Source: Chiloscyllium plagiosum (lineage: Eukaryota). Taken from it: DNA of 20,000 nt. Below are positions 4,656-19,633 of this stretch, piece after piece. Each line of letters begins with the position of its first letter. Position 1 is the stretch's first letter. The position numbers were made by a program, and so were the translations under genes. The DNA lies in contig NC_057760.1 in assembly GCF_004010195.1 (NCBI RefSeq), forward strand, positions 4,617,689 through 4,637,688. Reading direction: 5' to 3'. The notes beneath the pieces were generated by a model, which saw only the letters and a list, made by a program, of their open reading frames with translations, did no database searches and was not told the origin of the DNA.

Positions 4656-4748
4656 CAGTTCTGATAAAGAGTGACTGGACTCAAAATGTTAACTCTGGTT
4701 TTCTCTCAATAGGTACTGCCAGACCTGCTGAGTTTCTCCAACACTCTC
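4656..4748 (+). mobile_element. Penelope-derived 3' terminal fragment with a decayed hammerhead motif
   Basis: agtt-CTGATAA-agagt..actc-AAAAT-GTT-aact, followed by 'ctgccagacctgctgagtttctcca' (compare 'ctgcctgacctgctgcgcttttcca' in the young copies). Confidence 0.6.
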
Positions 4749-4913
4749 TAAGCTATAATACTTTCTAGAGGAAAGATTCATCAATGCACCCTGAAGCTTG
4801 TTCAGTGAACAGTGCAAGGTCAAAGGTGCAGTACAGAGCCAATGCCTTACCTTGAAGAGAACTGGATACCAAAACTCTGTCATTTGCCAAAGGGAAAGGT
4901 GGAATGCACTTAC

Positions 4914-5030
4914 AGAATATCTGGCCAGGAAATAGGGACACCATCCTTTCTGCTTCCCATAAGCTTTCAAGTCATCTAGGTTATAAATTCCAGAAGTTAG
5001 TGGCACTTGTTTCCCATGGAGATCAAACTC
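4914..5030 (-). CDS. ERCC2: ERCC2/XPD exon 7 ([39 protein letters not shown]), Fe-S ligand C190
   Basis: cag|GAGTTT...TATTCT|gtaagt; 117 nt; WCPYF motif. Confidence 0.97.
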
Positions 5031-5494
5031 CTGTCAGAGAAAATACACAAACACAAACTGCAGAATCAATCACTCAGTGAGAAAGCTAACATAGTGACTG
5101 ATGTTAACAAGCTGGAGGTATCAATTAAATAAAAGAAGAGCACAAATACTGGCAAACTTGAGTTTTTAAAAATAGACTGCAGGTTGTAGAGAGGAGATAA
5201 GATTTACGAAGGGTAGGATGGAGAGAGACAGAGGAAGGCCAGAGATGGAGACAAATTGGAAGGAATATGAAGGGCTTTGGAGACAGCAACATCTAACCTA
5301 TGACTTCAACAGATGCATAAGAACATTACCAAATGCAAGCTTCCTTCCAAACTACACACCATCCGGACTGGTTCTGCTTCAATGTTACTGGAATCCCAGA
5401 ATTCTTACGCAAACAGTCATCACTTTCTCAATAATTTTTAGTCTCGGCCCATGCTGTCTATATTTCATAAACAAAATAAGACAAAGGGAGATGA

Positions 5495-6728: not shown

Positions 6729-7375
6729 AAATAGCAAGATAAAAATCAAACTACAGAAGAGCTTCATTATTTATTTTAAAAAGTAGAGAAAAGTTGCAAT
6801 CCTACAACAGGTTTTCTTGGAACATTTCACCCAACTAGTGCCATTGCTCCACAGTTTGAAAATTGGATGTAGGTTTGCTCGCTGAGCTGGAAGGTTCATT
6901 TTCAAACGTCTCATCACCATACTAGGTAACATCTTCAATGACGTCATTTCTTATGGCAATGTCATTTCCTGTTCTTTTTCTCAGGGGGTAAATGGGGTCC
7001 AAGTCAATGTGTTTGTTGGTAGAGTTCCAGTTGAAATGCTATGATCCTAGGAATTCTCGTGCGCGTCCCTATTTTCGGCTTGTCCTAGGATGGATGTGTT
7101 GTCCCAGTCGAAATGATGCCCTACCTTATCAATTTGAAAGCTACGATTGTTAATAAGTCCATCTCTGGCAACAGAGAATTTAGCTGTGGTCTTGGCATTC
7201 AATGGCATTACCATTACTGAATCCCTCAGTATCAACATCTTGGGTATACCATTAACTGAACTAGACCAGCCATATAAAAGCAATATAAATATCAAACTAC
7301 AGAAGAACTGCATCATTTATTTTAAAAAGTAGAGAAAAGTTGCGATTCTACAGCAAATTTTCTCAGAACACATTT
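6729..7375. repeat. ~100-bp local direct duplication (6729-6827 and 7275-7375)
   Basis: Both copies contain 'atcaaactacagaaga...tttattttaaaaagtagagaaaagttgc.at.ctaca.ca..tttct'. Confidence 0.9.
6862..7130 (-). mobile_element. Penelope-like element (PLE) 3' fragment: end of GIY-YIG endonuclease region plus pLTR with a mutated hammerhead
   Basis: Minus strand encodes GHHFDWDNTSILGQA, then after a frameshift REFLGS*HFNWNSTNKHIDLDPIY. Downstream: TTGAAGA-tgttacc-tagtat-ggtgat-GAGAC-GTT. Possible TSD cagtttgaaa (6852-6861) / caatttgaaa (7130-7139). Confidence 0.8.
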
Positions 7376-8030
7376 GTGGGTGGCATGGTGGCTCAGTCAT
7401 TAGCACTGCTGCCTCACAGCGCCAGGGACCCAGGTTTATTCCAGCCTCAGGTGACTGTCTGTGTGGAGTTTGCACATTCTCCCTGTGTCTACTTCAGTTT
7501 CCTCCCACAGTCCAAAAATGTGAAGGTTAGGTGAATTGGCCATGTTAAATTGCCCACAATATTCAGGGATGTGTAGGTTAGATGCATTAGTCAGGGGAAA
7601 TGTAGAGTAATAGGGAAGGGGAATGGGTCTGGGTAGGATACTCTTCAGAGGATCGGTGTGGACGTGCTGGGCTGAATGGCCTGTTTCCACACTGTAGGGA
7701 TTGAATGACTTTTAAGATTCTATGAAAAGCAGATCACAGACTAGAAATCCTGCAGTGAATAACTCACTTCCTGTCTCCCCAAATACTGTTCCAACATCTA
7801 TAAGGTGCAAGTCAGGAATATGATGGAATACTCCCCACTTGCCTGGCTGACACAGTTCCAACTACACTCAAGAAGCTTGACACCATTCAGGACAAAGCAG
7901 TCCAACTGAACTGTGACCCATCCATCACCTTGAACAATCACTCCCTTTATGACCAGCACACAGTACCAAAAGTCCATAATATCTGTAAGGTGCACTCTGT
8001 TAACTCACCAAGGCTCTTTTGACAGCACCC
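7165..8030 (+). mobile_element. L2/Crack-like LINE ORF2 3' fragment, split into 7165-7277 and 7721-8030
   Basis: First part encodes FNGITITESLSINILG; second part encodes IYKVQVRNMMEYSPLAW...KKLDTIQDKA. Interrupted by the duplicated segment and a SINE. Confidence 0.7.
7376..7720 (+). mobile_element. HE1-type V-SINE (tRNA-derived shark SINE)
   Basis: A-box-like 'tggctcagtcatt', V-domain 'ctgtgtggagtttgcacattctccc...cctcccacagtccaaa', CR1-like tail 'gggctgaatggcctgtttccacactgtagggatt'. Confidence 0.88.
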
Positions 8031-8413
8031 ATTGACAGTGTGGCAGTCCCTCAGCACTGACCTGACAACAGAGCAACCCTCGCGAGCACGGACTCTACAA
8101 CAGTTTGATGGTCCCAAAATTGAGATTGAAGCCACGGTTTTTTGACTTTTAACAAGAGTTGTGAATTGCAACTTTAGAGTTAAATTTTTATTCACTGAAA
8201 TTTGTACTTCTAGCAGAAGAGCTTATTCCTTCCTCAGACCTCAGTCTACATGACCAGCAAGACAGATATTGGATGAGTTGGAGCAATGGAAAGCTCACCA
8301 CCCTATCACCTTATGGAGACTGACCTGTCAGTTCAAAGATGAAGGAGATCCAAAGTGCATGTAAACATCTGCTTTTTCAGCAATCACACAGAGCACTGTT
8401 CAGCAAAACTAAC

Positions 8414-8527
8414 CTCTGGGTGGATGCAGAGATTCTTCCTGGAGCTCAGAGCCAGAGCCAAGAATTCAATATTGTTGCCAGACAGTTTCTCGTAATAATC
8501 GATCAGCTTCCGCAGCTCCTCAATGAC
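8414..8527 (-). CDS. ERCC2: ERCC2/XPD exon 5 ([38 protein letters not shown]), includes Fe-S ligand C116 and R112
   Basis: cag|GTCATT...CCAGAG|gttagt; 114 nt; contained in ORF 8384..8737. Confidence 0.97.
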
Positions 8528-8585
8528 CTGAGAAGATGGGGTGGGAGGTTTAAGAGAGAACAGGGTGTAGAAGTGTGGGGGGGGA

Positions 8586-8710
8586 AGAGAGAGAGACAGA
8601 GAGAGAGAAGAGAGAGAAGAGTGAAGAGAGAGGAGTGGGAGAGGGCAGAGACAGAGGGAAAGTAAGCAAAAGAGAGACAGAGGAGAGGATGGAGGAATAC
8701 ACAGAGTGAG
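8586..8710. repeat. (GA)n-rich imperfect microsatellite; a long pyrimidine tract upstream of the exon 5 acceptor on the gene strand
   Basis: 'agagagagacagagagagagaagagagagaagagtgaagagagagg...'. Confidence 0.9.
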
Positions 8711-9000
8711 AGTTTTTTTTAATAAACAGGTTTGCAATGTTCAGAAATATCATTCTTTTTAAATGAACACCACAAACTGCAGTGCTCAAAATTAAGGTTT
8801 TTACATGTTGGCAACACAGACTGTCCACAGATCTTTTGATGCACATCCTGTCAAGGGTCAACATAACGTTTCTTCCCTTCCCCACCACCCAAGATCAAGA
8901 GGGTTACTTTTTGAACTTTTTGCAGCCACATCCTCACTCTCGCCAACTCCTTCATTCAGTGATGAGGTCACACAGTAACATTATTGTGTATTTGTGTTGA

Positions 9001-9213
9001 GGTGAAAATGTGTTGCTGGAAAAGCGCAGCAGGTCAGGCAGCATCCAAGGAGCAGGAGAATCGCGTTTCGGGCACGAGCCCTTCAGCCCTGAAGAAAGGC
9101 TCATGCCCGAAACGTCGATTCTCCTGCTCCTTGGATGCTGCCTGACCTGCTGCGCTTTTCCAGCAACACATTTTCAGCTCTGATCTCCAGCATCTGCAGT
9201 CCTCACTTTCTCC
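9001..9213 (+). mobile_element. Palindromic non-autonomous Penelope-derived element, copy A
   Basis: Inverted repeat 9003-9176 plus unique tail ending 'cagtcctcactttctcc'. Perfect 12-bp TSD TATTTGTGTTGA at 8989-9000 and 9214-9225. Confidence 0.9.
9086..9120 (+). ncRNA. Minimal type I hammerhead ribozyme motif (Penelope type); activity uncertain
   Basis: CTGAAGA (9089-9095), stem II ggc-tcat-gcc, GAAAC (9109-9113), GTC (9114-9116). Helix III is the palindromic ACGT; helix I is weak. Confidence 0.55.
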
Positions 9214-9439
9214 TATTTGTGTTGAAGCGCAGGATTTTAATTCACTGAAGAATTGGAACAATCAATATTCTCAATAAATACCAATCCTCGATTCAACTTA
9301 AATGAAAACACCATCATATTTAAATTGACACAAGACAATAACCATCAGCAATAGAAGGTTTTTTTTCAATAACTGGCACACACTTTATAAGCAGCACATT
9401 TATTTGCACTGAACTTACTACCTGTGCGTTGAAGCTATT

Positions 9440-9880
9440 TTGGTTCCCAGTCAGCCAGGCATTCCTTAGCTGAGAGTCTCCCTCCCCCACAACTCTCCTA
9501 CTCACTTTGTCCCTCTCCCTTCTCTAGTTGCAGCTTCTCGCCTCACCCAGTAAACTGTCTGCCACCCTTATAGCTAAGTACAGCAGATCCTCCTACCCCA
9601 CCAAACTGTCAGACTCACTCACGTAACTCCTGCTACCCTCCCCCAGATCACCAGGCAGACTCACTGCCCCGCTCTGATAAATCAGCCACCTTGCCTGGCT
9701 GACTTGCTAACCACACACCCTTGTTCCCATCCCACCCTATTCCCTAAATACATGCCACTAATACACACCTTGCCGATGTCCTGGCACCCTCCCCTCCCTA
9801 TCTGCCTCACTTGGCAGCCTCCTATCCTAGCTGCAACAAATCCCACCTCCCCCCTCCGCCCCCCAAATACACAACTGTTG
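9440..9880. repeat. C-rich, strand-skewed low-complexity region
   Basis: Many C runs; weak internal repeats such as 'aaactgtc' and 'cagactcact'. Origin unclear. Confidence 0.4.
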
Positions 9881-10354
9881 CTGATGGATTGACTTGTTAA
9901 CCTATCAACAGCAAACATGAGGAGAAACAGCTTGTAATTGGAAGATCAATTTCTGTCCAACGTTTTCAGTTCCACTTAGCAGAGTGGTGACATTTCTCAT
10001 CACTTCCCTCCCCTACTCCACCCATAACTGTGATTCACTTTATCTTTGTGATTTGGCCACTTTTGGGACATTCTCTACCCCTTCCTAGTTACTATATATT
10101 TTGAACAAAGATCTTGGGTGTCCAAGATCATCAAAACTTAAATGCTGGAAATAGAATCAACTTCATAAATACAATGAAAATAACACAGTGTAAACTGTTG
10201 GAGGAACTAAACTTGGTCTCAATGCCCCTAGGATAGAGAGGCGCAAGTGATAAGGATGAGGCAGATCCATCAATGAAAGATAATTTTAATTCTGGTTTGC
10301 AGTGTATACAGTGATTGTTAAAACAAAAATAGGGATTTCACAAATTGCACCTAC

Positions 10355-10417
10355 CTTCTCGATCTCAGGAACTGTTCGAGAGCAGTAGATGAGTTTAGTC
10401 ACTTCTGTTGGATATGT
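10355..10417 (-). CDS. ERCC2: ERCC2/XPD exon 4 ([21 protein letters not shown]), motif Ia
   Basis: ctag|ACATAT...GAGAAG|gtaggt; 63 nt; near-identical to human [21 protein letters not shown]. Confidence 0.97.
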
Positions 10418-11027
10418 CTAGAAGGGAAGAGAAAGGCAAAAAGGTGAGAATGTTTAGAGGTGCAGAGACAGGGCCTCTCTCACATACAGAAACATAATGG
10501 ATACAGAAAGAGATGTATTAGTGAATTGAACTGACCCCATCCACAGGGTGAGACAGAGCATAGATACATCAATTTCTAACAATGCCTAGATACCAGCCTG
10601 TACTGAGGGACCTACAGCCAGGGCAAATTGTCCAGTCAGTTGAGCTGAGAAGGACTATAGGTGATATCTGCAGTTGAACTTCAGTCGCGTGAAAGGGTTA
10701 ATTTCCGAAGAACTGGTGGCATGGCATGTTTCAGTATCAATATACACAACACTTCCTCTCTCAAACCATCCATAACCTTTAGCCATGCCGCTCCCACACA
10801 CTGTCCACCTACAACCACAACTTGGTCTGCACCCACCCATGGCTCAGTCCGCAAACACCCACAGTTCAAACTGCAGCCACGTGCACGTGATCGCTATGCA
10901 TGTGATATGTTACTATATAGAAGTTCAGGGAGTTCAAAGATGCCTCTCTGTCACCAAAAATATTGTTCTTACAAACAGAATAAAGAAGCTAATGAAATTG
11001 CATTGGGTATATTCAAACATTTGGGTG

Positions 11028-12207
11028 GCGAACACGATGGTGGTATTTAAGAAAGATGGTAAGGAAAAGCCAGGGAACCACAGACTGGTGAGCCTGATGT
11101 CAGTGGTGGGTATGTTGAGGGAGGGAATTCTGAGGGACAGGATGGACATGCATTTGGAAAGACAAGGACTGATTAGGGACAGTCAACATAGTTTTGTGCG
11201 TGGGAAATCGTGTCTCACTAACTTGATCGAGTTTTTGAAGAAGTGACAAAGAAGGTTGATGATGGCAGAGTGGTAGATGTTGTTTATTTGGACTTCAGCA
11301 AAACATTTGACAAGGTTTTGCATTATAGACTGGTTGTCAAGGTTAAAGCACATGGAATCCAAAAGGAGCTATCCGATTGGATACAAAATTGGCTTGAAGG
11401 TTGGAGACAGAGGGTAGTGGTAGAGAATTGTTTTTTGGACTGGAGGCCTGTGACCCATCATGGGTCGCAATGGGCCAAGGAATCGCAGATGAAGTTTAAT
11501 TTAGTTAAATGTGAGGGAGTGTTGCTGAACAAAGGGACCTAGGGTTGCAGGTGCATAGTTTTTTGAAAGTGGAGTCACAAGTGGACAGGGTAGAGAAGGC
11601 ATTTAGCACATTTGCCTTCATTGCTCAGTCCATTGAGGAGGAGTCAGGGTGTTATGTTGCAGCTGTACAAGACATTAATGAGGCCACTTTTAGAATACTG
11701 CACTCAATTTTAGTTTCCCTGCTATAGGAAAGATGTTGTTAAACCTGAAAGGATTCAGAAAATATTTACAAGGATGTTGCTGGGATTGGAGGGTTTGAGC
11801 TAAAAGGAGAGGTTGAATAGGCTGGAACTATTTTTCCAGGAGCATCAGAGGTCAAGGCGTTATTGAGGTTTATAAAATCATGAGGGGCATAGATAGGGTG
11901 AACAGTCACGGTCTTTTTTCCCGGGGTAGGGAGTCCAAACTAGAGGGCATAGGTTAAAGGTGAGAGGGGTAATGTGTAAAAGAGACCTGATGGGCAACCT
12001 GCAGAGGGTGCTGTTATATGGAATGAGCTGCCGGAGGTGATGGTGGAGGCAGGTACAATTACAAATTTAAAAGGCATCTGGATGGGTACATGAATAGTAC
12101 ATGCCAGACCAAATGCTGGCAAATGGGACCAGATTAATTTAGGATATTCTGGTTGGCGCAGTCAGGTTGGATCAAAGGATCTGTACATCTCTATGACTCT
12201 GTGACTC
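11028..12207 (+). mobile_element. CR1-clade LINE 3' portion with internal deletions
   Basis: KKDGKEKPGNHRLVSLMSVVG, SQHSFVRGKSCLTNLIEF, VDVVYLDFSKTFDKV, WIQNWLEGWRQRVVV; ends in a 'ctctatgactctgtgactc' tail. Confidence 0.92.
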
Positions 12208-12342
12208 ATTCATTCCAGCTTTACATGAATTTAACAGAAATACATGTTGAAATGAAGCTTAACTTTTCCCCTCCTTGACTCATCCCCCACCCCTTTCCAA
12301 CCCTAACCCAACGCACCCCAGAGAAGTAAGCATCATTCTCAC

Positions 12343-12420
12343 CATCTGATAGGCCACAAGCAGTGAAAGCAGTGACACAGTCTTCCCTGTGCCTGACGGC
12401 ATTTCCAAAACCCCATGTCC
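12343..12420 (-). CDS. ERCC2: ERCC2/XPD exon 3 ([26 protein letters not shown]), helicase motif I / Walker A
   Basis: ttag|GGACAT...CAGATG|gtgaga; 78 nt; EMPSGTGKT motif. Confidence 0.97.
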
Positions 12421-12800
12421 CTAAGATACAGAAAGTGACACCAAGTTTGAAACAACAAGACATGATCAGCAAATATAAGCAGCCAAACAGGCTTTCAAAC
12501 ATAAAAAACAAATACCGACTCGAAAAGTCTCATCCTTGTGTTCAATTCCTTTCATCATTCTGTACAGCCTTGTGCTTTTGAACATACCATAGGAAATGCC
12601 TTTTTAATAAAGAATGTGTTAACAATCCCACCCCCCCCCACCCCACAGCATATTATATCTATGGAGGGAAAGTCGAATTTGACAAACCTACTGGACTTAT
12701 TTAAGAGGTTACTAGAATAGATGAGGGAGAACCATTAGATATGGTATACTGATTTCCAGAAAGCTTTTAATAAAGTTCAACATAACAGGTTATTGCATAA

Positions 12801-13500
12801 ACAATAAAAACAAACAGATTCACAAACACGTTCTTCCCCACTGTTATCGGAGTTTTGAACGGACCCCTTTAATGTTAATTTCTCTTACTTCCTTTTTGCC
12901 ATGTGCAACATTGTGTCCTGGACCTTGTTCTACCCTGATGCACTTGTATAATGCAATGTGGCTGTAAAGCTGTGGCGAAACGGTTAAAAATTATGTCCCA
13001 ATACATGTGTGAATCTAACCGGAATGGAGGTGTTGCTTAGTCCCGTGTGAATCTTATTACACAGCTCCCCGTGTGAATCTTCTTATCTGTATGTAACCAG
13101 AATGGAATGTGTTTTTTAGCCTTGCTCTGCTGTTCACATGAATGTTTATATCTGGAAAAGAGTATATCAGCTGGAAAAGTCTCCAGTTCGGTGAGTCTGC
13201 TCCGGGGTTACGTTTAACCGCCGAGCGTGGGTTGTTGGCAACCGCTCTACGAGAACTGACGGCTCCCAGTTCCGGTAACATGTAGAGTGAGTATAAGCCA
13301 GACCCGTTGTAAGTATGAGACCTGGTTGTGGCGACGCTGCGGGGAATAAAATGCTCATATTCTAGCAGACTCGCCTCTTGGTCGTTTGTTCTGTGTCAGA
13401 CTACTCTCCTACGAACCTGACCTTGAGAATTTTTTAAAACAAAAGCACACAAGACAACACTTTTCACCGTATCTTGTTACATAGGACAGTAATAATCAAA
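12801..13500 (+). mobile_element. Rex1/Babar-like LINE 3' end (12801-12970 and 13442-13500), split by a solo LTR
   Basis: 'aacagattcacaaacacgttcttccccactgttatcggagttttgaacgga' encodes NRFTNTFFPTVIGVLNG, resembling the Rex1 ORF2 C-terminal R..NSFFP.AIR.LN. 3' UTR 'acacttttcaccgtatcttgttaca..gacagtaataa'. Family named from memory. Confidence 0.6.
12971..13441 (+). mobile_element. Solo LTR (471 bp)
   Basis: TGT...ACA termini; perfect 5-bp TSD AAAGC (12966-12970 and 13442-13446); AATAAA at 13345-13350; TATA-like motifs; internal short repeats; CpG-rich. Confidence 0.85.
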
Positions 13501-13765
13501 TCAAAATTAAGGCTTGTGGGATTGGTGATAATTATCTGGGCGTGGATTGAAATTTGGTTCACAGAGAGTAGGAATAAGACAGCGACTAGTGGGGTACCAC
13601 AGGGATCAATGCTCTGGCTCGTTATTCCCAATATCCATCTGGATACAGAAATCAAACGTAATATTTCACAGTTTGCTGATATCATCAAACTAGGTGAGAC
13701 TGAGAGTGGTGAGGAGCGTGCAAAGAGGCTTTAGGACAATTTATACAAAGTGTGAATGGCAGATG

Positions 13766-14075
13766 GAGCAGCACAGGGCTCAGTGGTTAGTACTGCTGCC
13801 TCACAGCACCAGGGACTCGGGTTCGATTCCAGCCTCAGGCAACTATCTGTGTGGAGTCTGCACATTCTCCCCGTGTCTGTGTGGGTTTTCTCCAGGTGCG
13901 CCGGTTTCCTTCCACAGTCCAAAGATGTGCAGGTCAGCTGAATTGGCCATGGTAAATTGCCCATAGTGTTATGTGCATAGTCAGAGGGAAATAGGTCTGG
14001 GTGGGTTACACTTCAGAGGGTAGGTTGGACTTGTTGGACTGAAGGGCCTGTTTCCACACTGTAGGGAATCTAATC
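13766..14075 (+). mobile_element. HE1-type V-SINE inserted in CR1
   Basis: A box 'ggctcagtggtt', B box 'ggttcgattcc', V-domain and tail 'ggcctgtttccacactgtagggaatctaatc'; homologous to 7376-7720. Confidence 0.9.
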
Positions 14076-14904
14076 ATGTGATTAATTGTGATGATGCTCA
14101 TTGAGGAAAAACAGAATGGCAGAGTATTATTTAAATGGAATAGGCTGGGAAAGACTGATGTTCAAAAGGACCTGGATATTCTTGTAAACTGGTCATTGAA
14201 AGCTGGCATGCAGGTGTTGCAGGAATTTAGGAAGGCAGCCAGTATGCTGGTGGTTACTCCACAAAAATTTGATGACAGGAGCAGAGAAATCTGACTGCAG
14301 ATGTACAAGGCCTTGGTGAGACCATACCTGGAGAAGTGTGTGCAGTTCTGGTCTCGTTACTTAACAAAATATATAACTGCCACAGGAGAGCAATGACCGC
14401 TCACCAGACTGATTCCTTGAGGATGGTTAGTTTCTCATACAAGGAGAGATTGGGTTGACTGGGCCTGTATTCACTTGGGCTGAGGATAATGAAAGGGGGT
14501 CTCATTGAATTGTACCAAATTCTGAGAGGGCTGGACAGACAGGGTGCAGGGATGATGTTTTTCACTGGCTAGAGGGGTGGAGTTACAGAACAAAGACTCA
14601 CGGTCTCAGAATACAAGGTAGGCTGCTTTGAAAAGAGTACGAGAAGAGGCGGTCTCCACTCAAATAATAGTGAACCTGGGAGATTTTCTACCACCAAAGC
14701 TTATGGAGGCAAGGCCACTGAATACTTTAAGAAACAAAGAAATAGATTTGAAGAAGTTAGAGGTGACAAGGGATATGGGGAGTATTACCTTCAAGATAGA
14801 TGACATATAATCATGATTACTGAATGGCATGGTGTTAATGGCCAAACAGCCTACTCGTGCTCCTATTTTCTATATTTCTACATTCTGCTTTTAGTTTTAC
14901 GAAA

Positions 14905-15300
14905 GATATGCAGTTCATGTCCAGTCTAAGGATAATATTCCAGTGAGTGTTGCTGAGTTTAGAGGGTTGAATTATGAGGTCAGACTTTACTTGAATTCTC
15001 TTGGGTTTAGGTGGTTGAGGAGTTGTCTGATTGTGGCTTTAAAAGTGATTAGAGGATCCTGCAGGTTAGTTGGAAATAGGAGGCAGCAACCTTCACACAA
15101 AGACTGCTGGATATTTGGCAGCCTCTCCCACAAAAGCTGATAATGATCAAATAATATGTTGAGAGTTGAGATTGATCATTAAGGATGGGTATCAAAAGAA
15201 AAAATAAAGCCTGGTTGATAGAGTAAAGGTACAGAAGAAGCATGATTCAAATGAATGGCAAAACCTTTTGATCAGATAGTAAGTGGCTTCCCAACTGTTA
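14905..15300 (+). mobile_element. Highly degraded CR1-like LINE 3' end
   Basis: 'agagggttgaattatgaggtcagact', 'tctgattgtggctttaaaagtgattagagga', 'gagttgagattgat' resemble CR1 3' sequences seen elsewhere in the window. Confidence 0.5.
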
Positions 15301-15391
15301 TAGGTCCCATGGCAGGTTGAAAATGATAAGAGTATTGATCCAGCCAGCCAATATTTTCCCTCAACTATTTTTGCCAAAACAATAGTGACTG

Positions 15392-16101
15392 TGTTATGAA
15401 GGTATAAGGAGTACTGTACCTTTAAGAGAGTTGAAAGCTAGTAAGAACTTACAGAGGCATACAGAGTACTGGAACATTTACAACATAACATTTGGTCCAG
15501 CAACTAGCAGTACTTGGATTGCTGAGACAAAAACAAATTCAAATTACGCCAGTTTACATTATGCCCCAAGATACTAAACTCCAATCAAGTTTGAATTTAG
15601 TTTTTTGACAATATTAACACCAATGAAACAATCCAATAATTTTGCTTATAAATATTAAACAAATTGAACAGTTGGAGAAGAATTGCCAAGCCACCAACAT
15701 CTGCAGACTGCCCAGAGAATAGCTCTCTTAAAGGTACCTTTACCTATCAATGACCCGTGAAACAGAAATCCCCAAGAAGAAAATAAGACAGAGGAAGATA
15801 CAAAGAGAAGATTCGACAGCTGACTGGTTTTAAAATTTGAAATTTTTGGTAAATCTTAATCGGGTGGCGATAGGTATTTATCGGACCAGTTTTATAAAAG
15901 AGAAAGTAAAAGGTAAGTTACAAATAGGAGTTGTAAATTAATTATTGACTGTTAGACTTAAAGAATAACATTCGTAAAGTTTTTCTGCTTTAAATAGTGA
16001 CTTTTGGGATAGTTCTTGGCCTCTCAAATTTTAACAGATTAAGTCACTTCATACAGGTTTAAATTAGCGGGGTGGGGGGGAAGAATGGTTTAGTCCATGT
16101 C
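15392..16101 (+). mobile_element. 5' LTR of a Gmr1-like Ty3/gypsy retrotransposon
   Basis: Starts TGTTATGAAG and aligns along its length with 18906-19633. Its extreme 3' end is replaced or interrupted by a PLE fragment. Confidence 0.85.
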
Positions 16102-16192
16102 TTAGTAGGGTAACAAAATGTCTTGAAATGAACCTTCCAGCTCAGCGAGCAAACCTACATCCAAAACCTCAACCTGAGCTACAAATCTTCTC
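16102..16192 (+). mobile_element. Penelope-like pLTR 3' terminal fragment, same family as 6862-7130 but opposite orientation
   Basis: 'aatgaaccttccagctcagcgagcaaacctacatccaa' is the exact reverse complement of 6863-6900. Confidence 0.85.
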
Positions 16193-16692
16193 NNNNNNNN
16201 NNNNNNNNNNNNNNNNNNNNNNNNNNNNNNNNNNNNNNNNNNNNNNNNNNNNNNNNNNNNNNNNNNNNNNNNNNNNNNNNNNNNNNNNNNNNNNNNNNNN
16301 NNNNNNNNNNNNNNNNNNNNNNNNNNNNNNNNNNNNNNNNNNNNNNNNNNNNNNNNNNNNNNNNNNNNNNNNNNNNNNNNNNNNNNNNNNNNNNNNNNNN
16401 NNNNNNNNNNNNNNNNNNNNNNNNNNNNNNNNNNNNNNNNNNNNNNNNNNNNNNNNNNNNNNNNNNNNNNNNNNNNNNNNNNNNNNNNNNNNNNNNNNNN
16501 NNNNNNNNNNNNNNNNNNNNNNNNNNNNNNNNNNNNNNNNNNNNNNNNNNNNNNNNNNNNNNNNNNNNNNNNNNNNNNNNNNNNNNNNNNNNNNNNNNNN
16601 NNNNNNNNNNNNNNNNNNNNNNNNNNNNNNNNNNNNNNNNNNNNNNNNNNNNNNNNNNNNNNNNNNNNNNNNNNNNNNNNNNNNNNNNNNNN
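16193..16692. other. Assembly gap (500 N)
   Basis: Exactly 500 N; probably a fixed-size scaffolding placeholder. Confidence 0.98.
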
Positions 16693-16739
16693 AGACCCTG
16701 AAGACCATGTTGAGAGCGTACTGTCAGGATTACCCGAAT

Positions 16740-16955
16740 TTAAAAATGTGTTGCTGGAAAAGCGCAGCAGGCCAGGCAGCATCAAAGGAACAGGAGAATC
16801 GACGTTTCGGGCATAAGCCCTTCTTTCCTGAAGAAGAGCTTATGCCCGAAACGTCGTTTCTCCTGCTCCTTTGATGCTGCCTGGCCTGCTGCGCTTTTCC
16901 AGCAACACATTTTTAAGCTCTGATACTCCAGCATCTGCAGTCCTCACTTTCTCCT
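16740..16955 (+). mobile_element. Palindromic Penelope-derived element, copy B, inserted in integrase
   Basis: Inverted repeat 16740-16916 plus tail. TSD AGGATTACCCGAAT (16726-16739) / AGGATTACCAGAAT (16956-16969). Confidence 0.9.
16824..16860 (+). ncRNA. Minimal type I hammerhead ribozyme motif; activity uncertain
   Basis: CTGAAGA (16828-16834), a-gagc-ttat-gccc, GAAAC (16848-16852), GTC (16853-16855). One stem II mismatch; helix I weak. Confidence 0.5.
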
Positions 16956-17218
16956 AGGATTACCAGAATGCTTGGGATAAAGGTATCCCATTTGTATTGT
17001 GTGTCATTAGAGATGCCCCAAACAAATCTACTCAGTTTACTCTCTTTGAGTTAATATTTGGACATGAAGTGAGAGGCCTTTTGAAATTAATTAAAGAGAA
17101 ATTGATAAGACCAAATTTGGAGATTTCACACTTGGATTATGTATCGGAGGTGAGGGAGAGTAAGTCAGGTAAGTGAGTTAGCTAAACAGCACCTAAAGAG
17201 GGCACAGTATAGAATGAG

Positions 17219-17290
17219 TAGAGAGTGTGGCACTTGAAAAGCAGAGCAGGTCAGGCAACATTTGAGGAGCAGGAAAATCGATGTTATCAG
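17219..17290. mobile_element. Truncated left arm of a related palindromic PLE-derived element at the integrase/RT junction
   Basis: 'gaaaagcagagcaggtcaggcaacatttgaggagcaggaaaatcgatgtt' resembles the left arms of copies A-C. Confidence 0.7.
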
Positions 17291-17388
17291 ATGTTTCTGC
17301 TCTGATAAAACAACACCCCTATTGGCTTAATCCTTTCAAAGTCAGACAGGTCCAGATGGAGACCATGCTTGACGAGGATATCATTGAA

Positions 17389-17610
17389 GAGCTGAAAAAT
17401 GTGTTGCTGGAAAAGTGCAGCAGGTCAGGCAACATCAAAGGAGCAGGAGAATCGATGTGTCGGGCATAAGCCCTTCTTCAGGAAGAAGAAGGGCTTATGC
17501 CCGAAACGTCGTTTCCCCTGTTCCCTGGATGCTGCCTGACCTGCTGCACTTTTCCAGCAACACATTTTTTAGTTCTGATCTCCAGCATCTGCAGTCCTCA
17601 CTTTCTCCTA
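17389..17610 (+). mobile_element. Palindromic Penelope-derived element, copy C, inserted in the RT N-terminus
   Basis: Inverted repeat ~17389-17576 plus tail. TSD GAGGATATCATTGAA (17374-17388) / GAGGACACCATTGAA (17611-17625). Confidence 0.88.
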
Positions 17611-18895
17611 GAGGACACCATTGAACCAAGTCAGAGTGAGTGGAGTTCACCAATTGTCCTAGTTCCCAAACCAGAGGGGACTCAACGATTCTGCATGAAT
17701 TATCAGAACGTCAACACCATTACAAAATCGGACTCATATCCAATTCCTAGATTGGGGGACTGTATCAAGAAAGTCGGACAAGCCAGTTACATCACCAAGT
17801 TGGACTTACTGCGTGGCTATGGCAGGTAACTTTATCAGAGACAGCGAAAGAAATTTCTGCATTTGTAACCCCAAATGGGCTATATCAATTTAGAACACAG
17901 CCACCACATTCCAAAGACTCATGAACAGAGTTGTGGTTGGGTTAATAAAATTGTGCAGTCTATTTGGACAATGTAATGATCTTTAGTAAGTCCTGGAAAG
18001 ATCACGTGGTATAGTGGCTAAGCTCTTTGAATGACCATGACAAGCAAAACTGGCAATAAACTTCAATAAGACTGAATTTGCAGAAGCAGAGGTGACGTTC
18101 TTGGGACATAACATTGGTCATGGGAGATTGACCCCCATGGAACGCAAAGACGAAGGCCATTGAGGAATTTCCACAACGAACCTCGAAGAAAGAGGTGCTT
18201 CAATTCCTAGGACTTGGCGGATTCTATCAAAAATTTGATCCAAACTTCAGTAGTGAAGTAGCATCGTTCACCAATTTGTTGAAGAACAAAGTTTTGGTGA
18301 ACAGAACAATGCCAGGAGGCATTTGACCATTTTAAATCAATATTAACCACCATACCAGATTTAGCTACATCAAACTTTTCAAAACCTTTTAAAGTTGCCA
18401 TTGATGCTAGTGAGTTGGAGCTGTACTGCTACAGGAAGATGAGGATGGGATTGAACTGCCAGTTGGTTACTTTTTGAAGAAGCTCAACATCCACCAGAGG
18501 AAATACTCCACGATTAAAAAAGAACTATTGAGTTTGGTACTGACCTTACAACATTTTAATGTGTATGTCACAAACAATGTGTCGGACATGGTTACACAGA
18601 TCACAATCCTCTTAGGTTCTAAGAACGCTTTAAAGACAAGAATATTTCATTGGAGTCTTATGTTACACTTTTAATTTAAAAATCATACATGTTGCGGGTT
18701 GTAAGAATGTAATCGCAGATGCGTTATTGCAAATTTAACTGAAAGTACAGATAAGATGCATCTATCTAATGTCATATATACAGATGGGAAGAAGTTAGGG
18801 TAAACTCAGATTAAAGTTATCTGTATGTTATGGTAATGTGTTTAAATAATAGAAAAAAGGAGCGAAGCCATCTTTTCATTGTGACAGTTGTTTTT

Positions 18896-18905
18896 AAGGG
18901 GGAGG
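18896..18905 (+). promoter_or_regulatory. Polypurine tract of the LTR retrotransposon
   Basis: AAGGGGGAGG directly before the TG of the 3' LTR and preceded by a T run. Confidence 0.85.
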
Positions 18906-19633
18906 TGTTGTGAAGATGTAAGGGGTACTGTACCTTTAAGAGAGTTGAAAGCTAGCAAGGATTTAGAGAGACACATGGAGTACTGGAAAATGTATAATGT
19001 AACATTTGGTCTAGCAGCTTACAGTACTTGAGTTGCTATGAGACAAAAACAAATTCAAATTTGGCCAAACAGTTTAAATTATGCCCCAAGATACTAAACT
19101 CCAATCAGGTTTGAGTCTGATATTTTGACAATATTAACACCAGTGAAACGATCCGAAGCTTTGGGGTATAAGACCAGGAAAAACTGAACAAATGGGGGAG
19201 AACTGCCAAGCCACCAACATATGCAGACTGCCTGGAGAATAGCTCTCTTAAAGGTACCTTTATCTATTAATGATCTGTGAAACAGAAATCTCTAAGAAGA
19301 AGAAAATAAGACAGAGGAAGTTACAAAGAGAAGATTTGACAGCTGGCAGGTTTTCAGATTTGAATGTTTTGGTAAATCTTAATTGGGAGTTTTATCGGAC
19401 CAGTATTGTAGAAGGGAAAGTAAAAGATTTGTTAGAGATAGGAGTTGTAAATAGTAATTCATTAATATTCTATGTTAGACTTAAAAAATAACATTCTTAA
19501 ACTTTTTGTACTTTAAGTAGTGACTTTTTGGATAGTTCTTAGCCTCTCGAATTTTAACAAATTACAGCACAGGTTAAATCATTTCTATGTTACAGGTTTA
19601 AATTAGTGGGAGGATTTACCTTGTGTCGTAACA
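18906..19633 (+). mobile_element. 3' LTR of the Gmr1-like element (728 bp)
   Basis: TGTTG...TAACA termini; TATA-like 'ggtataaga' near 19166. Flanks ACTG (15388-15391) and ATTG (19634-19637) form a possible 4-bp TSD with one mismatch. Confidence 0.88.

Follow-up and report, generated by a model that had tools for sequence, protein, structure and literature searches.

Short palindromic insertions with a hammerhead motif in Chiloscyllium plagiosum DNA as probable terminal-module insertions of a Penelope-like family

A stretch of 20,000 nucleotides from Chiloscyllium plagiosum (assembly GCF_004010195.1, contig NC_057760.1, positions 4,617,689 to 4,637,688 of the forward strand), referred to here as the window, carries three short palindromic insertions, each of which folds back beside a hammerhead ribozyme motif. 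On every testable feature these palindromes are minimal Penelope-like element (PLE) insertions, and they depart from both retrozymes and miniature inverted-repeat transposable elements (MITEs). They are best read as the known PLE insertion type consisting of an inverted, 5′-truncated copy plus a tail, and none of them keeps a complete ribozyme. [quoted passage not shown] The features of EN+ PLE insertions that were found comprise a one-sided tail in the 30–40-bp range, an inverted 5′-truncated copy, a target-site duplication (TSD) of variable length and a hammerhead in the terminal module. An earlier note on this DNA had already proposed a retrotransposed PLE-type unit with a minimal type I hammerhead motif, and this was borne out by an extra nucleotide after A9 and a palindromic ACGU replacing helix III; its proposal that a PLE protein with reverse transcriptase (RT) and GIY-YIG domains performed the insertion is probably also correct.

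The three copies were located where the earlier note had placed them, at 9001–9214, 16740–16955 and 17389–17609, with a mean column identity of 86% (alignment including flanks) and a near-constant size of 214–221 bp. Their components, together with a related fragment, are as follows (window positions).

8990–9000, plus strand: left TSD of copy 1 (11 bp), matching 9215–9225 at 11/11 positions; its last 2 nt also fit the natural continuation of the arm.
9001–9086, minus strand: inverted, tail-less arm of copy 1; core incomplete (CUGAAGA lacking 3 nt, GUC lacking 1 nt).
9088–9180, plus strand: direct arm of copy 1; core motif at 9089–9116, G10.1 changed to A, native 5′ strand of helix I absent.
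9180–9214, plus strand: tail of copy 1 (~35 nt); family copies end sharply at 9213–9215, and tandem-tail joints return to 9180.
9215–9225, plus strand: right TSD of copy 1, 11/11 versus the left TSD.
16726–16739, plus strand: left TSD of copy 2 (14 bp, one mismatch), 13/14 versus the right TSD.
16740–16824, minus strand: inverted, tail-less arm of copy 2, starting 3–4 nt inside the core (without CUGA).
16825–16955, plus strand: direct arm and ~39-nt tail of copy 2; core motif at 16828–16855, with a helix II mismatch and a helix I of 1 bp.
16956–16969, plus strand: right TSD of copy 2, 13/14 versus the left TSD.
17219–17285, minus strand: older, lone and non-palindromic fragment of a sister subfamily (nhmmer E 1e-10).
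17373–17388, plus strand: left TSD of copy 3 (16 bp, three mismatches), 13/16 versus the right TSD.
17389–17484, minus strand: inverted, tail-less arm of copy 3; CUGAAGA present (C3 at 17481), GAAAC and GUC each substituted.
17485–17609, plus strand: direct arm and ~35-nt tail of copy 3, starting 2 nt inside the core.
17610–17625, plus strand: right TSD of copy 3, 13/16 versus the left TSD.

Every copy was shown to consist of a long inverted repeat of roughly 85–95 bp per arm, in agreement with the ~85 bp given earlier, with predicted folding energies between −156 and −168 kcal/mol (z from −20 down to −25) and none of 200 shuffled sequences equally stable. In all three copies an inverted, 5′-truncated copy adjoins the 5′ end, and a common tail of 34–39 nt (put at ~37 nt by the earlier note) is present on the right side only. 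The insertion boundaries are firm because TSDs flank the copies, those of copies 2 and 3 being independently visible as duplicated codons in the interrupted frame of a host retrotransposon. TSD length is variable (11, 14 and 16 bp), which points to target-primed reverse transcription and not to cut-and-paste transposition. All three TSDs open with A directly after the tail (9215, 16956 and 17610), two of them with AG. Since a run of pyrimidines closes the tail, AG may be what natively follows it, either as a splice-acceptor-like sequence or as a priming microhomology of 1–2 nt. The TSD of copy 1 opens with ATT, which is the motif most cut by the Poseidon element from Anolis (PAc) in the available text of PMC11167929.

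The majority state of the six arms comprises CUGAAGA, one extra A, a 4-bp helix II, GAAA, the palindromic ACGU and GUC. At the level of the family, the core features of metazoan minimal hammerheads (CUGANGA, an extra nucleotide, a G-C-closed helix II, GAAA, a palindromic 15.2–16.2 and GUC) are all present, and the family-level motif is, as predicted from its sequence, a metazoan minimal hammerhead by the definition in the accessible part of PMC4209133. Core, helix II and helix I are together intact in none of the six arms. In copies 1 and 2 the sequence CTGAAGA is confined to the plus arm, and in copy 3 to the minus arm, so the earlier suggestion of a hammerhead core on each strand does not hold; the remaining three arms lack an intact CUGAAGA. 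The G10.1–C11.1 pair has been lost in copy 1, copy 2 exhibits a mismatch in helix II with helix I reduced to 1 bp, and the minus-arm core of copy 3 carries two core substitutions. As the earlier note had observed, the fold point lies close to the motif, at most 5 nt from hammerhead position C3 in all three copies, and it deletes the 5′ strand of helix I in each.

In a transcript spanning a whole copy, helix II is predicted to pair with a probability of at most 2e-10, and a ribozyme-compatible fold would cost 23, 29 and 31 kcal/mol in the three copies relative to the long hairpin. With the 5′ strand of helix I deleted as well, these models do not support the idea that RNA of these copies switches between hairpin and ribozyme. 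In the Rfam check put forward earlier, the hammerhead model was absent among the 18 rows obtained for the window at E<=10; the rows represented hairpin-type microRNA (miRNA) models, all below their gathering scores. Since helices I and III are missing, this result was not counted against the hammerhead motif.

The wider family was assessed from sequencing runs, 20 of the 24 listed runs containing the window or part of it. Contigs of three DNA runs from three organisms (X1, X4 and X11) were placed on 9068–9270, yielding 271,301, 137,680 and 118,084 contigs, respectively, with counts saturated in X1 and X4. The family of the terminal module is thus very abundant. Depth falls sharply at 9088 and at 9214–9215. 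Loose ends before 9088 were observed in 197, 651 and 515 contigs, with an overall agreement of 0.36–0.57, and their last eight letters are identical across all three runs, indicating that the sequence of other copies extends upstream past the fold point. In the low-agreement consensus of these upstream letters, helix I of the family is represented by three pairs around a U-U mismatch. A variant at 9119 that completes a 4-bp helix I accounts for 18% of depth in X1, 1.2% in X4 and 0.2% in X11, and represents a subfamily expanded in one organism. Joints leading from 9212 or 9214 back to 9180 were found in all three runs, so that some contigs repeat the tail head to tail, and the tail therefore constitutes a ~35-nt unit bounded by 9180 and 9212–9215. 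Some contigs in the DNA runs also join tail ends (9180–9214) on opposite strands. The centre of copy 1 itself had a summed depth of 0–451, compared with 1.5–2.7e7 in the arm. Among 15 joints listed (62 more lie beyond these), 10 change strand, and eight opposite-strand joints read as head-to-head, all at different positions and none above a depth of 420; near-symmetric junctions of this kind are badly represented in De Bruijn contigs.

The position of the fold point was compared between copies. Relative to C3, the two arms start at about −1/+5 in copy 1 (its left arm possibly at 0 with a 3-nt slip), at −3/+3 or +4 in copy 2 and at +2/−3 in copy 3, the last being the mirror image of copy 2. All six arms thus start between −3 and +5, and the cleavage site (+28) is the start of none. 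Neither the centre of copy 2 nor that of copy 3 is obtained by simple joining at 3 nt of microhomology. Comparison of the two arms of each copy showed 3 differing columns of 81 in copy 1, likewise 3 in copy 2, and 8 of 81 in copy 3, compared with 5–8 of 81 between copies; the earlier description of the insertions as young consequently stands for copies 1 and 2 and not for copy 3. Four informative columns (9102, 9145, 9154 and 9175) pair the arms by copy, one (9118) pairs them by side and two are mixed. Across the 105 possible trees of the six arms, the by-copy tree ties for the shortest (22 steps), and the best by-side tree requires 25 steps. A palindromic master would be expected to leave one centre in all copies and arms that group by side; three different centres were found in this small sample, and the by-copy pairing constitutes modest evidence against such a common master.

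Unrelated families with a minimal hammerhead were used as a comparison. Metagenome contigs were scanned for the minimal core, which gave at least 120 loci and, among the matches listed (to which all counts in this paragraph refer), 95 flank-sharing groups. At least three contiguous helix I pairs are possible in 65 of 93 comparators (mostly three to five pairs), compared with about 3% of controls. An inverted arm of at least 40 nt within 300 nt upstream was present in 23 of the 83 locus groups with enough upstream DNA, or in 20 of 80 after merging four groups with one common flank, and in none of 76 control anchors. Four loci (L015, L055, L102 and L093) have one fold-back centre and upstream flank in common and differ downstream, as would a fold-back inside another repeat or assembly chimeras. 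Of 30 rows in the tabulation of comparator fold-backs, three were merged with L015 as one event, and L009, a 21-nt match, is doubtful. In the largest comparator family, a GIY-YIG open reading frame (ORF) ends 86–98 nt before the core (Pfam GIY-YIG above the cut-off in L043, E 5e-5, and below it in L010), and RT fragments below the Pfam cut-off were found in L076 and L061. This family displayed 16 independent fold-backs with 16 different centres, ranging from +20 to −214. The inverted arms of L053, L107 and L028 extend into the end of the GIY-YIG ORF. Clear TSDs were confined to L008 (12 bp, perfect), L071 (10 bp, perfect) and L040 (14 bp), low-scoring candidates being disregarded, and L008 bears a tail on one arm only. 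The 5′ ends of the family are bimodal, with 26 of 53 at −30 to +6, eight at −200 to −30 and 19 beyond −200, in a tally confined to loci whose core is intact and in which diverged copies may align over less than their full length; 3′ ends were left unused because subfamily divergence cuts the alignments. The fold-backs and the spread of 5′ ends indicate that mini-palindromes near the hammerhead recur in PLE families and are continuous with longer copies.

The favoured explanation takes the terminal module to be the end of a pseudo-long terminal repeat (pLTR), comprising a minimal hammerhead, ~65 nt and an optional ~35-nt tail. The GIY-YIG endonuclease of the element would make a staggered cut of both target strands, as may be extrapolated from the available text of PMC11167929, and the RT would prime from both 3′-OH ends on RNA template left uncleaved by the hammerhead, using the outer (tail) start once and the inner (tail-less) start once. 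Both cDNAs would halt near the upstream edge of the hammerhead, owing to either the template's 5′ end or a ribonucleoprotein block; the stop may correspond to a splice boundary or the beginning of a transcript in the vicinity of the hammerhead, or to a protein–RNA block. Head-to-head joining of the cDNAs with 0–1 nt of microhomology would then generate a dead-end palindrome without the 5′ strand of helix I. Weighed against self-priming, the two-primer step is proposed tentatively, with slightly less than even confidence.

Self-priming would leave the identity of the insertions as above and would produce the mirror arm when a single nucleic-acid strand (perhaps an antisense template) folds back on itself at a short self-complementary stretch around C3. 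The native sequence at C3 provides TTC/GAA complementarity, copy-specific variants recur in both arms of copy 1 and in both arms of copy 2, and this route has been proposed for PLE head-to-head junctions in the accessible part of PMC3846280. It is nevertheless regarded as rather unlikely: in copy 3 the tail-less arm outreaches the tailed arm by 5 nt in the upstream direction and therefore is not a copy of a tail-started first-strand cDNA, the arms of this copy differ at 8 of 81 columns, and the tail-less end coincides with the second RT start that is used on both strands in vitro, according to the available text of PMC11167929.

It is similarly doubtful that the source RNA came from a non-autonomous derivative, linear and only ~130 nt long, with the hammerhead at its head and a transcript start just before C3. 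Such a derivative is compatible with the favoured explanation, the mirror arm still being added at insertion and the source RNA representing the sole difference. It would account for the start of all six arms at −3 to +5 of C3, for the very high copy number of just the terminal module and for the 26 of 53 comparator loci ending within −30 to +6. Conversely, hundreds of contigs (197, 651 and 515) have upstream sequence in common, the short and long comparator copies form a continuum into the GIY-YIG ORF, with 19 of 53 beyond −200, and the three copies bear different subfamily variants.

A more specific version of events, which we consider improbable at present, is a single dimeric PLE event in which two RTs would prime both target strands, one using the tail start and the other the inner start. 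Their templates would be two uncleaved RNAs, which a hammerhead dimer might hold together, and both RTs would stop at the upstream edge of the ribozyme. The minimal hammerhead would in that case contribute to integration by forming a structural boundary or by mediating pairing, and not by cutting. Tail asymmetry, inverted pLTRs and hammerhead conservation would be explained together, and the prediction would be countable in many natural copies.

The proposal of the earlier note, a MITE-shaped, retrozyme-like palindromic master copied whole by PLE enzymes, fares worse and appears quite improbable. It requires that later tip deletions shifted the centres and that arms were homogenised within each copy. 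Palindromes are unstable and their arms are subject to correction. The near-constant size of 214–221 bp, centres that lie within 8 nt, inner arm ends that agree to about 6 nt and the 9118 variant in two right arms would all suit such a master. On the other side, four columns pair the arms by copy, each copy has its own centre, with those of copies 2 and 3 being mirror images, and the sequencing runs contain native sequence continuing upstream in other copies as well as many other opposite-strand joints. Unrelated families yield the same shape with varying centres, a ~90-bp hairpin is predicted to bury the core (helix II probability at most 2e-10), and PLE insertion already accounts for the TSD and the one-sided tail. 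A cut-and-paste DNA-transposon MITE with a chance hammerhead-like word, to which the long terminal inverted repeats and small size might point, is extremely unlikely, as MITEs have a fixed short TSD and symmetric terminal inverted repeats, and here TSD length is not fixed (11–16 bp), the ends are asymmetric with a one-sided tail, and the centres and inner arm ends vary.

Several observations weigh against the favoured explanation of mirror arms made at each insertion of a PLE terminal module. The parsimony margin amounts to 3 steps among six sequences, and the arms of copy 3 differ from each other as much as from those of other copies (8 of 81). The 9118 variant is common to the right arms of copies 2 and 3 and is not among the variant rows listed for the sequencing runs; a common palindromic ancestor would explain this sharing. 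The three centres are also more tightly spaced than those of the comparator family. De Bruijn contigs, saturated counts and the 62 further joints could conceal a fixed centre that many copies share and that resembles the one in copy 2 or in copy 3. Finally, exact-pattern scans of viral and metagenome contigs gave no (0) autonomous RT/GIY-YIG element with the terminus of this family, so that PLE membership is argued from architecture and analogy; an RT and GIY-YIG ORF beside the terminus was seen only in the unrelated comparator family of the same build.

Under the favoured explanation, short palindromes with a hammerhead word would be PLE insertion stumps at risk of being misfiled as MITEs, retrozymes or pre-miRNAs, the last because the best Rfam rows are miRNA hairpins. 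Such minimal units may serve as a natural data set for mapping RT starts and stops and for distinguishing one from two templates for the arms. The part most worth following is that 5′ ends pile up at the upstream edge of the hammerhead across unrelated families. A literature search, which did not extend to repeat libraries, returned no paper on this size class of mini-palindromes in cartilaginous fish.

Regarding the genomic setting, two exons on the minus strand (4692–5033 and 8387–8740) match consecutive parts of Pfam DEAD_2 (E 2e-6 and 6e-5, respectively), and are presumed to belong to ERCC2/XPD. The repeat content of the window looks shark-like. About 260 nt separate copy 1 from the second DEAD_2 frame, and this copy is probably intronic; transcription of the host gene would run through the strand of copy 1 that lacks the core and would give an RNA with the ~85-bp hairpin. 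Copies 2 and 3 are located inside an LTR retrotransposon relic (~15390–19565), and are therefore younger than this element, the LTRs of which are 81.5% identical over 669 columns and the RNase H of which was identified by Pfam. The relic contains at least four PLE-type insertions. An integrase-like stretch (16958–17173) appears to precede the RT, as in Gmr1-like elements; Pfam and PDB searches did not confirm an integrase there.

Further repeats were observed elsewhere in the window. A second repeat family at 6863–7154 (minus strand) carries a decayed hammerhead-like motif at 6904–6938 (minus strand), with a broken frame ahead of it that we take to resemble a Poseidon-type endonuclease C-terminus; a peptide search with 6925–7068 (minus strand) gave four unannotated matches, of which two were low-complexity or unrelated and none had a GIY-YIG Pfam match. 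A second piece of this family is present at 16103–16164 (plus strand), beside an N gap, and a direct repeat of 95 nt (86%; 6730–6824 and 7276–7370) flanks the fragment at 6863–7154. The segment 3179–3310 may represent a much older fold-back of another hammerhead-type family (self-inverted at 70% over 57 nt; E 4.1, weak). At 4661–4745 (plus strand), a decayed, non-palindromic hammerhead-like motif with a fuzzy core is followed downstream by an arm with similarity to the element (nhmmer E 7e-4). A short interspersed nuclear element (SINE)-like repeat of ~330 bp, presumably akin to the elasmobranch HE1 SINE, occurs twice, at 7381–7720 and 13770–14080 (84–87% in matched blocks), and CR1-like RT relics lie at ~1870–2700, ~11040–12200 and ~13500–14870.

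Among known systems, retrozymes are described in the available texts of PMC7229834 and bioRxiv 10.64898/2026.07.22.740005 as tandem arrays in head-to-tail orientation, in which every unit has a complete hammerhead, and as sources of circular RNAs. The palindromes resemble the metazoan non-LTR retrozymes described there in being small, non-coding and PLE-related, with a type I hammerhead and long TSDs. They differ in being head-to-head and in lacking a complete hammerhead, and the window contains no tandem array of the unit; the label 'retrozyme-like' used in the earlier note was consequently not retained.

Metazoan minimal hammerheads reside in pLTRs, with most motifs in truncated PLEs, and Schistosoma displays hammerhead pairs on opposite strands 100–700 bp apart (accessible parts of PMC4209133 and PMC6765202). 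In common with these, the present motif has CUGANGA, an extra nucleotide before helix II, a palindromic ACGU and no helix III, with G10.1–C11.1 in most arms; unlike them, with their helix I of 4–5 bp, the family has a weak helix I in the loose-end consensus, and the 5′ strand of this helix is absent from the three copies. In Drosophila virilis, an intron ends at helix I and the start lies 46 nt before the intron (PMC4209133 and PMC2377424, as far as available).

For PAc, the available text of PMC11167929 reports that both target strands are cut and extended in vitro, that two RT starts bound the tail, and that unprocessed RNA is used, hammerhead cleavage being dispensable. The RT start sites lie roughly 100–150 nt downstream of the hammerhead, as in the present family; inverted products are not among the results reported in that text. 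The PAc ORF starts at stem II, and an ORF starting at an ATG in loop/stem II was considered here and dropped because the equivalent ATG is absent from a sister subfamily (as represented by loose ends).

The closest correspondence is with EN+ PLE insertions, which in the available texts of PMC8557442, PMC3846280, PMC2377424 and PMC8969392 have an inverted 5′-truncated copy adjoining the 5′ end, a 30–40-bp tail at one end and palindromes at head-to-head junctions; how such inverted, tailed insertions form is called an open question in PMC8557442 and PMC3846280. The copies in the window differ in that the whole insertion is ~215 bp and ORF-less and that the upstream edge of the hammerhead marks the end of both arms, and neither this minimal size class nor the pile-up of 5′ ends was seen in the EN+ PLE descriptions available from PMC8557442, PMC3846280 and PMC2377424. 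They share with EN+ PLE units, as described in these texts, the head-to-head inverted copy with a variable inverted part, the tail at one end, TSDs of around 8–16 bp and the palindromic junction.

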